From positions 99,820,001 through 99,884,000 of the forward strand of contig OX597816.1 in assembly GCA_951406725.2 (NCBI GenBank): 64,000 bases of DNA. The letters run 5' to 3'. The DNA comes from Octopus vulgaris (lineage: Eukaryota). This document shows, piece by piece, positions 11,400-33,743 of the stretch (position 1 is its first letter; each line of letters opens with the position of its first letter). Both the position numbers and the translations under genes were made by a program. The notes under the pieces were generated by a model. The model saw only the letters and a program-made list of their open reading frames with translations. It did not search any database and was not told where the DNA came from.

Positions 11400-14300
11400 C
11401 TCTTTTACTCTTTTACTTGTTTCAGCCATCCGGCTGAGGCCATGCTGGGGCACCGCCCTTGTTGCTACCCTCTCTAAGTCCAGTTTGCCGTGGCTGGCCA
11501 CTGATCTAAGAGAGAGTTTGTAGCTGCTGCCCTTAGGTTACCTTCGTACCTTGCAGTGGGTTCATCTGGGATCCCGGAAAGCAGCTTGTCTAGATGTTTT
11601 TTGAAAATGTCCACATCCGCATCATGTAGATCTCTTAGTTTTCTTGGCAGTTTGTTGAAAAGCTGAGGGCCCCTGAACCCCAGGCTATTACAGTATCTGC
11701 TCCTTACCCTGGATGTGGAAGACGGGACCTTTGGCACCACACAGTGACGTCCTGTACGGGGATTGGAACAGCTCTCAATTCCAAAATTTGGTGCTAGTCC
11801 CTCCAGGATTTTCCATATGTATATCACTGCATATCTCTCTCGTCTTCGTTCCAAGGAGTACAAATTGAGTTCCCTAAGCCTCTCCCAATAGTTCTTTTCT
11901 TTCATGGTGGAAATCCTCTTGGTGAAATGTCTTTGGATTGTCTCAAGCTCTGTGGTTAGTTTGACACTATGCGGTGACCACAGTTGGGAGCAGTAGTCCA
12001 GGCGGCTTAGGACAAATGTCCTCCATAGTGTCAACATGGTCTCGCAGTCTCTTGTCCGGAATGTCCTCAGGATCCAGCCAGTGAGTCGTCTGCACATTGT
12101 CGCCACCTTCGCGATGTGTGAAGAAAAAGATGCATCGTCACTCATGTCTATCCCCAGGTCCCGTATTGATTTCGATACTGGGATTTCGATCCCTCCTGGA
12201 CCAGTATAGTTGTGTTGTAATGTATATGTGTTTACAGCTTGATATTGTAAGGCTTGAAATTTACCAGCATTAAATTGCATGTTGTTGTCTTCAGCCCATT
12301 TGTATATGGCATCCAGATCTTGTTGTAAAAGGTCAGCATCAGCTGGGTTTTTGATTGCCTGTGCTACCTTTGTGTCATCAGCATAGCTAGTGAGGGATGT
12401 TGTTTGTGCTACCAAGGGCATGTCAGAGAGCGCCACCAAAAACAGCAAGGGTCCCAAGACTGTGCCCTGTGGCACCCCGCTTGCTATTGGTGTCTTTCCC
12501 GAGAGGGCTCCATTGGCTGCAACCATCTGGCTTCTGTCCTTCAGGAAGTCATGTATCCACTCACCTACTTTTCCTGTTATGCCGAGTCTGAGTAATTTGT
12601 GACATATCACTCCGTGGTCGACTTTGTCAAAGGCCTTCGCAAAGTCGAGATATACCACATCCACCTGTGAGCGATCCAGTAGTTGTTTCAGTACCCAGTC
12701 GTAGTGTTGTAACAGCTGCGTAAGGCAGCTTCTTCCTGGGCGAAAGCCATGCTGTGTGTCAGTGAGACGGTTAGTTTCTTCGAGGAACGTGATCAGTTTT
12801 TTTCTGATGATTCGTTCCATGACCTTACTTATGTGTGACGTCAGGGAGACTGGCCTGTAGTTTTTGGCCTCTGCTCTACTCCCTCCTTTGTGGATAGGGC
12901 ATATGGTGCCTTCTTTTAGCGCCCTGGGCAGTTTACCGTTAGCCAAGGAACCACTGAAGAGCTTCTTCAGTGGTCCCGCTAGGGCATGCCTGCATGTTTT
13001 TAGGAGGACTGCTGGGAATCCATCTGGTCCAGCAGCTGAGTTTATTCTCATTTCTTCTATGGCAGATATTACATCCCTCTCTGTTATGTCTATGTGGTCG
13101 ATGGTTGTTGTTTGGTTTTGGAGTGTTGTGGCATCAAAGAGAACTTCTGGGTTTGTGATTTGCATGTGCCCCAGAGGGGATGTGAACACACTTTTATACT
13201 GTTCCTTTAGTATTTCACTTATCCCTTGGGGGTCCTCAGTTAGAGAGCCCTTTTTATCAAAGAGTGGGCCAATCTTGCAGTGTACCGAGGTGGTTTCTTT
13301 CGCAAATTTAAAGAAGGCTTTAGGGTTTGTTTTAATATTCTCTATGGCCCTGGCTTCTCTCTCTGCCCTCTCCTTCTCATAGGAAAGTTTGAGTGCAGTT
13401 TCCGTTTCAAAAAGTTTCAGGTGGAGTCCCTCATTGTTTCTCTGCCGTGCATTCAGTTGCTTCGAGAGCTTAGCTCTTCGCCTCATAAGTATTTTCCTGT
13501 CTCTGGGAATAACGTTCCTATGCCCGCTGGCTTTTTTCTCCGGGACAAACTTATGGCATATGTTCTGTATTGTTGTCATGAAATGTTGGAAATGTGTGTT
13601 GGTGTCTTGTGTGGTGATGAAGTCACTCCAGTCATGTTTTCGGATCTCTTCGTTGATCTTCTTCCAGTTTGCCTTATGGAAGTTTAGACTGGATAGGCCT
13701 GTGGTATTTTCTAATGGCTGCGTCTCAACTAACTCTCTCATACCATATATCATTACCTCTACTAAGTTGTGATCTGAGAGAATTGTTGGTGTTACCATTA
13801 TGTTGTGGATGAGCATCGGGTTGCTTGTGAAACAGAGGTCCAAGACATTCTCACCTCTTGTTGGCCAAAGCACTGCTTGCTCCATGAAAAACTTGCGTGT
13901 GAGAGCCAACAAGGACTCTGTCTGTCTCTGTTCAAGTGATGTCATTCCAGGGAGGAGATGGCCATCTGGCCATTTGACTTTCGGAAGGTTAAAATCTCCC
14001 AGCAGTAGAATGGTGTTACCCTGGTCCAGTTTGTCCAGGACTTCTTCTATTCTTCTGAGGCTATCTTCAAACACTCCTTCATGACTAGGGGTGTCTGGTG
14101 GCCGATATGTGACACATATTACTATTTTCGGTTGTTTCATGTGTACTATCAGTGTGTCACAGACTGAGTTTGAGTGTGTCAACAGTACTATGGGTGTGAC
14201 ATCTTCACGGACGTACAGGGCAACCCCACCATGAGTTCTTTCCTTCCTGTCCGACCGAAAAACAGCATACTTCGGTATGTGTATCTCTGCATCTGCTATA

Positions 14301-14706
14301 CTGCTTGACAGGTGCGTTTCAGTCAGCGCTATGCATATTGCATGGTTGCTTGTGCTCAAGTCCCTAAGGTAAGGAATTTTACCCATATTAGTGGGTTTCA
14401 CCAGACCTCTGACATTCAGCAGAAGCACTGGTGAGACACCCGGGGTGTCAATAAAGGCTGACGGTGTGGCACCTGGGCCGGCGTCAGCGGTGGCCACCCT
14501 GGGTCCCTTGATTGTGGTGGTCTTGAGTGCTGTTGTGAGTGCCCCTGGCTCTGAAGACGATGTATCCAGGCCAGTTGTCCCACAATTTTCTCTGCCATTT
14601 CCACAAAATTTCTTTGTTCTGCTGCCGCCGTCTGCATTTTCTCTGCAAATGTGCGCCTTCTCCTTGTTGGGGCATTACGCACTATGTCTGCATATTTCTG
14701 GGGCAG
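11400..14706 (-). mobile_element. CR1/L2-group LINE copy 1 (5'-truncated within ORF1, intact ORF2)
   Basis: APE plus RT ORF; short 3' UTR with hairpin TCAGCC-GGAT-GGCTGA and (TAAAAGAG)2 tail; both ends abut (TA)n. Confidence 0.95.
11474..14497 (-). CDS. LINE ORF2: APE endonuclease + reverse transcriptase (1007 aa, GTG start in the track)
   Basis: [36 protein letters not shown] (APE); [69 protein letters not shown] (CR1/L2-type RT and C-terminus). Confidence 0.95.
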
Positions 14707-14917
14707 AAATATATATATATATATATATATATATATATATATATATATATATATATATATATATATATATATATATATATATATATATATATATATATAT
14801 ATATATATATATATATATATATATATATATATATATATATATATATATATATATGTATATATATATATATGTACATATATATATATATATATATATATAT
14901 ATATATATATATATATA

Positions 14918-15205
14918 TAGCATATCGCCCGGCGTTGCTCATGTATATATATAGGCATATATATATATATATAGCCAATATATATACAAATGGAAAAAAA
15001 TATGGTAAATATATATATAGTATATAGGTGGAGTTGCGTCCCCTAGACAGTTTGCAGTTTGTGTTTCTGATTCTCGACCCATGTCGAATTTATCGATTTT
15101 TTTCAGATCTGGGGGAACTTTTCAAAATTTTCGCTGCGTATAGTTATGAATTATGACATTGGCTATGTGTGTGTCAAGTTTCATCAGAATCGGTTGAAAT
15201 ATGTA
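14918..15205 (-). mobile_element. Non-autonomous Helitron in the spacer of pair A (partly overwritten by TA)
   Basis: Matches 28395..28783 (ATCGCCCGGCGTTGCTC...CATCAGAATCGGTTGA), but the first ~100 bp are interleaved with TA and the far end is missing. Confidence 0.7.
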
Positions 15206-32100: not shown

Positions 32101-32465
32101 AGAGCTGTTCCAATCCCCGTACAGGACGTCACTGTGTGGTGCCAAAGGTCCCGTCTTCCACATCCAGGGTAAGGAGCAGATACTGTAATAGCCTGGGGTT
32201 CAGGGCCCTCACCTTTTCAACAAACTGCCAAGAAAACTAAGAGATCTACATGATGCGGATGTGGACATTTTCAAAAACATCTAGACAAGCTGCTTTCCGG
32301 GATCCCAGATGAACCCACTGCAAGGTACGAAGGTAACCTAAGGGCAGCAGCTACAAACTCTCTCTTAGATCAGTGGCCAGCCACGGCAAACTGGACTTAG
32401 AGAGGGTAGCAACAAGGGCGGTGCCCCAGCATGGCCTCAGCCGGATGGCTGAAACAAGTAAAAGA
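29173..32465 (+). mobile_element. CR1/L2-group LINE copy 4 (same short 5' end as copy 1; frameshifts)
   Basis: ORFs 29382..30395, 30392..31084, 31057..32052 and 32013..32240; same 3' hairpin and tail; TA on both sides. Confidence 0.95.
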
Positions 32466-33190
32466 TATATATATATATATGTACATATATATATATATAT
32501 ATATATATATATATATATGTACATATATATATATGTACATATATATATATGTACATATATATATATATGTACATATATATATACATATATATATATGTAC
32601 ATATATATATATATACATATATATATATGTACATATATATATATATACATATATATATATATATATATGTACATATATATATATACATATATATATATAT
32701 GTACATATATATATATATATGTACATATATATATATACATATATATATATATATGTACATATATATATGTATATATATATATGTACATATATATATGTAT
32801 ATATATATGTACATATATATATGTACATATATATGTACATATATATATATGTACATATATATACATATATATATATATGTACATATATATGTACATATAT
32901 ATGTACATATATATGTACATATATATATATGTACATATATATATGTACATATATATGTACATATATATGTACATATATATGTACATATATATATATGTAC
33001 ATATGTACATATATATGTACATATATATATATGTACATATGTACATATATATGTACATATATATATATGTACATATATACATATGTACATATATATGTAC
33101 ATATATATATATATATGTACATATATACATATATATGTACATACATACATATGTACATATATATATATATATGTACATATATATATATAT

Positions 33191-33743
33191 GTACAACTCA
33201 GAGAAGCTACACAAAGAAAATCGTCTCAATGCAAAATGTCAGCTACTGGGAAAGACTGAAGGTATTAAACCTCTTCTCCCTGGAGCGGAGGCGGGAGAGA
33301 TATGCAGTGATATACATCTGGAAAATCCTGGAGGGTCTTGTCCCAAACTTTGGCATTCAAAGTTACTCCAACCACAGAACGGGCGCCGCTGCGTGGTGCC
33401 AAGTGATTCCAACATCACCATCAAAATACAGGTCCAGATACTGCAACAGCTTGGGTTTCAGAGGACCACAGCTCTTTAACATCCTCCCTAAATGCCTGAG
33501 AGACTTACATGGTGTGGATGTGGGTTTCTTTTAAAACTAAACTGGATCTCTTCTTGTTGGGAGTCCCAGATGAACCTACCTCACGACAGGAGACACGGAT
33601 GCGGGCAGCAGCATCGAACTCCCTTGTTGATCAAGTGCCACGTATCAGAGGTGGATTCACAAACTAGTGTAGCTCATTCAGCGGTGGTGCCCCAGCATGG
33701 CCGCGGCCTTCGGGCTAAAACATTTTTAAGGATTTAAGGATTT
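33191..33743 (+). mobile_element. 5'-truncated copy of a sister CR1/L2-group LINE family
   Basis: [38 protein letters not shown]...[14 protein letters not shown]; 3' GGTGCCCCAGCATGGCC-GCGGCCTTCGGGCT-AAAACA then (TTTAAGGA)2; absent from the homologous array at 18824-19980. Confidence 0.92.

Follow-up and report, generated by a model that had tools for sequence, protein, structure and literature searches.

Young long interspersed nuclear elements (LINEs) with two open reading frames (ORFs) in Octopus vulgaris probably insert into pre-existing TA tracts by target-primed reverse transcription (TPRT), with a boost encoded by the element itself. They were studied starting from a 64,000-nucleotide stretch of contig OX597816.1 (assembly GCA_951406725.2, positions 99,820,001 to 99,884,000; hereafter the window), in which self-comparison and reading of the element/array junctions revealed four near-identical copies of a LINE family designated A, together with a 550-bp piece of its sister family, B. 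Each of the nine visible ends of copies 1 to 4 and of B adjoined TA arrays, as a sequence-only reading of the window had noted for the four copies; genome-wide, TA arrays were enriched at both ends of the elements, tails and arrays shared short microhomologies at their junctions, and ORF2 encoded an apurinic/apyrimidinic endonuclease (APE) and a reverse transcriptase (RT).

Association of LINE ends with TA arrays

Two tests were applied genome-wide. In the lenient test, TATATA was sought 6–34 nt downstream of an exact tail on forward-strand matches only, reverse-strand counts being left out because they were inflated by multiple matches per locus; the test is slightly inflated for every family, because the first T or TA may come from the tail itself. 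The strict test, applied to fetched loci (numbered with L below), called for 8 or more TA steps in the 30-bp flank. The background comprised 600 kb, taken as 60 systematically spaced 10-kb stretches of C1–C5, and passed the tests at 7.0% of positions (lenient) and 4.0% (strict). The exact 26-nt tail of family A had 551 matches genome-wide, and 228 of the 285 forward-strand tails (80%) passed the lenient test. The sequence-only reading had named a majority of non-TA flanks, or a frequency explained by TA abundance, as outcomes that would speak against targeting; this count gave neither.

In the strict test, a first set of A, consisting of 32 of the 40 best matches listed (2 window copies and 6 others left out), had TA arrays at 27 of 31 3′ flanks and 25 of 31 5′ flanks, one flank being N-masked at each end; among the six 5′ flanks that failed, L033 and L040 reflected internal deletions and not genuine ends. 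A second set, the first 30 pattern matches by chromosome order, among which L206 and L207 represented one insertion, gave 25/29 at the 3′ end and 7/13 at the 5′ end. The diverged family B, already noticed in the window to occupy the same type of array, did so genome-wide (3′ 26/29, 5′ 9/11; 29 of 40 matches listed). Family D, which first came to notice in shared arrays, had 2179 exact tails genome-wide and gave 26/30 at the 3′ end and 17/24 at the 5′ end, the 5′ ends being set against a reference copy. DNA searches using locus stretches of D and of a further family, C, returned no matches, and D was later located by pattern; C adjoined TA in both copies seen (L044, L009, L290:312-3428, minus strand). 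More than 20% of flanks, the criterion of PMC4494074, were TA arrays in A, B and D, and in the RTE control described below as well (40–45%).

Variably truncated 5′ ends of A, B and D thus adjoined TA arrays in the same way as the fixed 3′ ends, and the pattern was seen at hundreds of dispersed young A loci with distinct breakpoints. That TA is part of the element tail was ruled out, since 5′ ends at many breakpoints were TA-flanked and some copies were TA-free. The proposed target had been (TA)n/TGTACA, of which the first half stood and the second did not: within 60 bp, TGTACA occurred at 0/25 and 0/27 flanks of A, 1/26 of B and 0/26 of D, that is, 1 of 104 flanks compared with 3% of the background. 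TGTACA is only a local variant of the array. Other A–D tails were found near A, B and D loci at 0.7–3.0 per 100 kb versus 0.33 in the background. Copies of A also clustered regionally (C1:71.48-71.93 Mb, C1:73.09-73.12 Mb and C2:57.5-59.7 Mb).

Recent activity, likewise suggested from the window, was borne out by five genomic copies of A differing by 4–15 substitutions per 3.5 kb, and by the restriction of B to one of the window's two blocks. Pieces of A with at least 99% identity came up in contigs from sequencing runs whose labels name four organisms. Contigs from four runs tentatively taken as RNA covered ORF1 and ORF2, which records presence and not transcription.

Two families served for comparison. 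One was a LINE family that we take to belong to the RTE clade; the other was a short repeat carrying the last ~50 nt of A, with 66,456 exact tails, considered a short interspersed nuclear element (SINE) by its size and abundance. The 5′ flanks of the SINE were left out, as the boundary there coincided with a microsatellite inside the element. In the SINE copies L211-L240 a TA/TG microsatellite was present internally, and one D copy (L165) was located within it.

Age of the arrays relative to insertion

Thirteen of 41 loci carried an interrupted target duplication of 12 nt or longer, compared with a permutation mean of 4.8 and a maximum of 12 in 2000. At the 20 loci with at least 100 bp of array on each side, the variant units of the two sides agreed (cosine 0.61 vs 0.36, p=0.0004), and those common to both sides lay 20–100 bp out. 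The only empty allele, that of the B site, was situated in a 1155-bp array. Taken together, the duplicated array variants, interrupted duplications and empty allele give good, indirect support to the view that the arrays mostly existed before insertion.

The flanking arrays were long, in agreement with the earlier description: A had medians of 274 and 158 bp, B 130 bp, D 97 bp and RTE 101 bp, versus 46–48 bp for a length-biased background. Arrays of at least 200 bp were present at 16/25 and 12/27 flanks of A versus 3% of the background, and the longest of 938 background arrays stayed below 500 bp. Such lengths could arise because long tracts are preferred or because arrays grow afterwards. Growth alone would mean that short TATA seeds are targeted and that arrays expand afterwards on both sides, as with TAFTA in maize, long arrays being the consequence; this would accommodate the excess length at A and the copies lying in short arrays (L018), and PMC5907723 describes empty sites of 6–8 bp expanding to (TA)50. 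However, such growth would not be expected to leave common variant units 20–100 bp out on both sides or interrupted duplications, the array at the empty allele was already long, some copies are very young, and the older SINE lacked long flanking arrays; this explanation is therefore considered improbable.

Organization and placement of the elements

Full-length A was 5638 bp (L043, L044) and full-length B ~5.6 kb (L132), both opening with AAGATGGCGCTGAAC straight after the TA repeats. The start motif AAGATGGCG was located at L043:1763, in L044 (minus strand) and at L132:1728; it resembles the YY1 site found close to the beginning of human L1, and may be an internal promoter common to A and B. 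Family A had a 1.7-kb 5′ untranslated region (UTR), a 311-aa ORF1 overlapping ORF2, and a short 3′ UTR with predicted hairpins followed by a tandem tail; L040 and L043 carried open frames for both ORFs. The tails were (GTAAAAGA)n in A and (GGATTTAA)n in B, with a further tail of (TATCAAAG)n. The copies shared a fixed 3′ end and variable 5′ truncation, with target duplications readable at part of the loci. Tail/array junctions overlapped by 1–3 nt (GAG/TATA, TTT/ATAT, AAG/TATA), and tail microhomology alone predicts array flanks at 16% (TA), 29% (TAT) or 49% (TATA).

As had been described, copy 1 in the window retained a 1007-aa endonuclease and RT frame; it ran from a GTG at 14497, matched PF03372, PF14529 and PF00078 of Pfam and had intact catalytic motifs. 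No ATG preceded the first endonuclease motif in A, whereas families B and C had an ATG at the position of the GTG, ahead of the endonuclease (the equivalence in B being judged by eye), which suggests that ORF2 of A may use non-AUG initiation or reinitiation. The best match in PDB was L1 ORF2p (E=8e-25). No Pfam match to RNase H was found in ORF2, and no CCHC-like motif in ORF2 of families A to D. The endonuclease loop motif PTRxxNxLDL was of the commonest length, shared by 66 of the 111 homologs that had the motif (124 examined); with a loop of ordinary length, nothing marks the enzyme as specialised.

Family C, 62% identical to A, is young; its tail is (ATCA)n and its ORF2 frame is open over 1039 aa (L290:312-3428, minus strand). 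ORF2 of D was 38% identical to that of A. Seven of 30 D copies (L154, L159, L165, L168, L172, L177 and L179) ended 51–54 bp before the tail, at a CACC-AGGT-GGTG hairpin, and several of them carried a few extra bases lengthening the palindrome, as if the cDNA had folded back.

An RT tree was built from 123 sequences, with a partial RTE as root and no named clade references. In it, A, B, C and three unnamed proteins formed a clade with support 1.0; D grouped with a ctenophore protein (0.995), and the common ancestor of A to D spanned 110 tips. Members of the CR1 group (CR1/L2) possess neither RNase H nor a C-terminal CCHC knuckle in ORF2, and have a short 3′ UTR with a stem-loop and a tandem-repeat tail in common with SINEs. 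By this architecture and these definitions, A to D appear to be CR1-group LINEs; similarity of ORF2 to L1 ORF2p was weak, and the architecture argues against the R1 or Tx1 clade.

N-terminal domain of ORF1

An N-terminal ORF1 motif was common to A, B and D, and scored against PF13837 (Myb_DNA-bind_4) with 16.3, 15.4 and 25.1 bits, respectively (E=0.014, 0.025 and 2.4e-5); weak matches to CCCH-type fingers lay C-terminal to it. An ORF1 profile from five copies (A2) retrieved 50 proteins at E≤0.001. Of 22 of these matches scanned, ten passed the PF13837 cut-off, for example P0226 (E=1.1e-12 to A2), and a further three hit PF13837, two above and one below the cut-off; many were multi-repeat Myb/SANT proteins. 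The predicted structure had three helices (9–21, 27–37 and 44–71) with a pLDDT confidence score of 87.6, and its top structural neighbours were Myb, SANT and GT-1 domains, below firm thresholds. A search of the ESM Atlas with ORF1 gave no usable match. These similarities suggest that the N-terminus is likely homologous to the Myb/SANT-like (trihelix) domain and putatively binds DNA; SANT-type domains can bind histones as well.

Proposed route of insertion and alternatives

In the preferred explanation, insertion would proceed by TPRT into existing (TA)n tracts. Nicks would be made at TpA steps of long, deformable TA tracts by an APE endonuclease of ordinary type, and the RNA would anneal to the nicked end through 1–3 nt (TA, AT or TAT) of its short tandem tail. 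The preference exceeding the genome-wide bias, in which RTE shares, would come from a factor encoded by the element, the candidate being the Myb/SANT-like domain predicted at the N-terminus of ORF1. In a stronger form, A to D would belong to a widespread invertebrate CR1-group lineage in which this domain, and not the endonuclease, tethers the complex to long (TA)n; this form is regarded as doubtful.

Several observations weigh against an element-encoded preference for existing arrays. About one-fifth of A copies had no TATATA nearby, and L033 and L047 had no TA flank. Many loci lacked a readable target duplication, and the sole empty allele itself adjoins an A copy. The RTE family gave 621 of 1390 forward copies (45%) in the lenient test and, in the strict test, 12/30 at the 3′ end and 10/30 at the 5′ end, where boundaries were imprecise, with 7/22 for the 5′ flanks of an older RTE set. 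The shared-tail SINE gave 9802/32950 (lenient) and only 2/30 (strict), a comparison with A that is confounded because the SINE is older (best pair identities mostly 87–96%). Family D fell in another RT subclade than A to C, a position equally compatible with an ancestral trait and with a host effect. As for ORF1, all Myb/SANT scores were under the PF13837 gathering score of 27 bits, structural matches of the model were modest (Foldseek E≥0.38; best Z 7.5, below 8, with a root-mean-square deviation of 2.5 over 58 aligned residues), and a sequence-profile search of PDB with the domain returned no Myb protein, only ribosomal S8 matches without significance.

Since RTE tails were enriched, part of the TA bias is host-wide, reflecting a general pull of the genome toward TA arrays. 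The whole pattern might accordingly be a hotspot made by the host, in which long (TA)n is open, nicked or break-prone, any TPRT element lands there, and no special factor is encoded by A, B and D. The enrichment of RTE over background (~6-fold lenient, ~10-fold strict) agrees with this, as do TA flanks in 2 of 8 background copies of a short repeat that we take to have Helitron-like ends, the same behaviour in A and D despite their distance in the RT tree, and the ordinary endonuclease loop. Nevertheless, A stood far above RTE (80% vs 45%, odds ratio 5, p=7e-29), although the RTE controls were not strictly age-matched with A; the 5′ flanks of A and B together exceeded those of the older RTE set (Fisher p=2e-4); and arrays at A were longer than at RTE. 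A purely host-made hotspot is thus rather unlikely, but the enrichment in the unrelated RTE family weakens the case for a preference peculiar to this lineage.

Random insertion followed by selective loss outside TA arrays (safe-haven retention), or an assembly artefact, was also considered. The duplication in the window does resemble an assembly or haplotype duplicate; however, ~96% of the genome is non-array, more than 66,000 SINE copies persist mostly outside arrays, and the dispersed young loci of A have distinct breakpoints. This explanation is largely refuted and highly improbable. An element-assisted insertion into existing TA tracts is therefore retained as the probable one.

Organization of the window

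The features of the window are listed in Table 1. It consisted of two blocks separated by an assembly gap. Over 4.8 kb of alignment, the flank repeat (19783-24791 versus 33740-38761) had 6 mismatches and 19 gap openings, and was thus indel-rich. The 5′ breakpoints were pairwise identical, copy 1 with copy 4 and copy 2 with copy 3, copy 2 extending ~120 bp further 5′ into part of the ORF1 CCCH-like finger; body single-nucleotide differences tied copy 2 to copy 4, and a frameshift was common to copies 2 to 4. Family B occurred only in block 2, block 1 having the empty site. These sequence comparisons make it most likely that both blocks represent a single locus, either assembled twice or present as two haplotypes, a caveat that the sequence-only reading had itself raised. 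Given the repeated flank and shared 5′ breakpoints, the window holds about three independent insertions (two of A and one of B), and four independent insertions of A are unlikely.

Table 1 Features of the window (positions in the 64,000-nucleotide stretch)
Feature	Position	Strand	Remark
(TA)n array, 3′ end of copy 1	9294..11399		almost pure TA from 10351
Family A copy 1	11400..14709	-	5′-truncated within ORF1; tail (GTAAAAGA)n
Copy 1 ORF2 frame	11474..14674	-	APE endonuclease and RT; 1066 codons stop-to-stop
(TA)n array, 5′ end of copy 1	14710..14919		
Short dispersed repeat, garbled	14920..15200	+	partly mixed with TA
TA array, 5′ end of copy 2	15199..15403		
Family A copy 2	15404..18823	+	ORF2 frameshifted
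TA array with TGTACA variant units	18824..19978		contains empty B site near 19741
Flank repeat, first copy	19783..24791		repeated at 33740-38761
LINE fragment, presumably RTE-type	19979..20862	+	adjoins array; its family is the control
Assembly gap	24792..24891		100 N, separates the two blocks
Family A copy 3	24892..28240	-	many indels; 3′ end lost in N gap
TA array, 5′ end of copy 3	28241..28389		
Short dispersed repeat, cleaner	28395..28785	+	orientation as at 14920
TA array, 5′ end of copy 4	28774..29170		
Family A copy 4	~29172..32464	+	frameshifted
TA/TGTACA array, left part	32465..33190		
Family B 3′ fragment	~33194..33743	+	tail (GGATTTAA)n; apparent ~11-nt target duplication
Flank repeat, second copy	33740..38761		
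TA/TGTACA array, right part	33743..33939		

In block 1 the spacer repeat (14920-15200), the one with presumed Helitron-like ends, was garbled with TA; its counterpart in block 2 (28395-28785) was clean. The 5′ ends of the LINEs were exchanged between the blocks. A simple inversion of the centre was unsupported, the orientation of the spacer repeat being unchanged; the garbled spacer and swapped ends are possibly a consensus error at the 3-kb inverted repeat. A unique short stretch beside the left TA array was tandemly duplicated at 9235 and 10243 (9235-10426). Elsewhere, an open frame at 40030-40473 (minus strand) resembled what we take to be the GIY-YIG end of a Penelope-like element, and RT-like fragments at 47299-47685 and 48770-49225 were presumably of the Tx1/L1 type.

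Relationship to known target-specific elements

Microsatellite-targeting APE LINEs include Waldo (ACAY), Mino (AC), Kibi (TC) and Koshi (TTC) (PMC3812793, PMC4494074) and belong to R1 and Tx1 (PMC4640811, PMC4494074), the placement of Waldo and Mino in R1 being taken from a cited title. Target-specific APE LINEs in general have mostly been reported from these two clades, with the endonuclease considered chiefly responsible for their specificity (PMC4640811, PMC4494074). The octopus families resemble Waldo, Mino, Kibi and Koshi in being LINEs with APE and RT found mostly in one microsatellite, but differ in having (TA)n as the target, no CCHC-like motif in ORF2, an ordinary endonuclease loop, and an ORF1 bearing Myb/SANT-like and CCCH-like domains. 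With CR1/L2, A to D share two ORFs, endonuclease and RT without RNase H, a short stem-loop 3′ UTR, a tandem tail, 5′ truncation, junction microhomology and a shared-tail SINE, whereas the strong (TA)n preference sets them apart. Tail/target microhomology has been reported for CR1, L2 and RTE (PMC6007223).

TA microsatellites are targeted by the plant DNA transposons Micron, MuTAnT and SaTar/TAFTA (PMC3812793, PMC5907723, PMC4486113). The target repeat is the same, and several octopus families likewise pile up in common arrays; the plant transposons are cut-and-paste elements, whereas the octopus families are animal retrotransposons. A Myb/SANT-type domain on a protein apart from the catalytic one is also known from the Myb/SANT (MADF) accessory proteins of PIF/Harbinger, a likeness by domain type alone, since in octopus the domain heads a LINE ORF1.

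Thirteen recently active CR1 families were counted in O. vulgaris in a 2026 repeat annotation (PMC13282606), which held no target-site analysis in the portion seen; the portions seen of PMC10294476, PMC9115989 and PMC12859917 gave no target information. The ORF1 survey PMC4120745 contained no occurrence of Myb, SANT or CCCH. Neither a CR1-group LINE on (TA)n nor a LINE ORF1 bearing Myb/SANT was found in the literature searched, Repbase and subscription papers lying outside it, and these may note TA flanks. New here are the 5.6-kb full-length A and the Myb/SANT-like start of ORF1 in A, B and D.

Several young families of CR1-group architecture, with an endonuclease of ordinary appearance, thus show 80–90% association with (TA)n. 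If tethering by ORF1 were true, the ORF1 protein would be what directs such a LINE to its target, and the looser aim of the shared-tail SINE and of RTE would be explained. The open-frame copies (L040 and L043) make the aiming of an APE LINE testable, whether by endonuclease, tail pairing, ORF1 or DNA structure, and the finding is relevant to why nested elements gather in the long TA tracts of the genome and why such tracts resist assembly.

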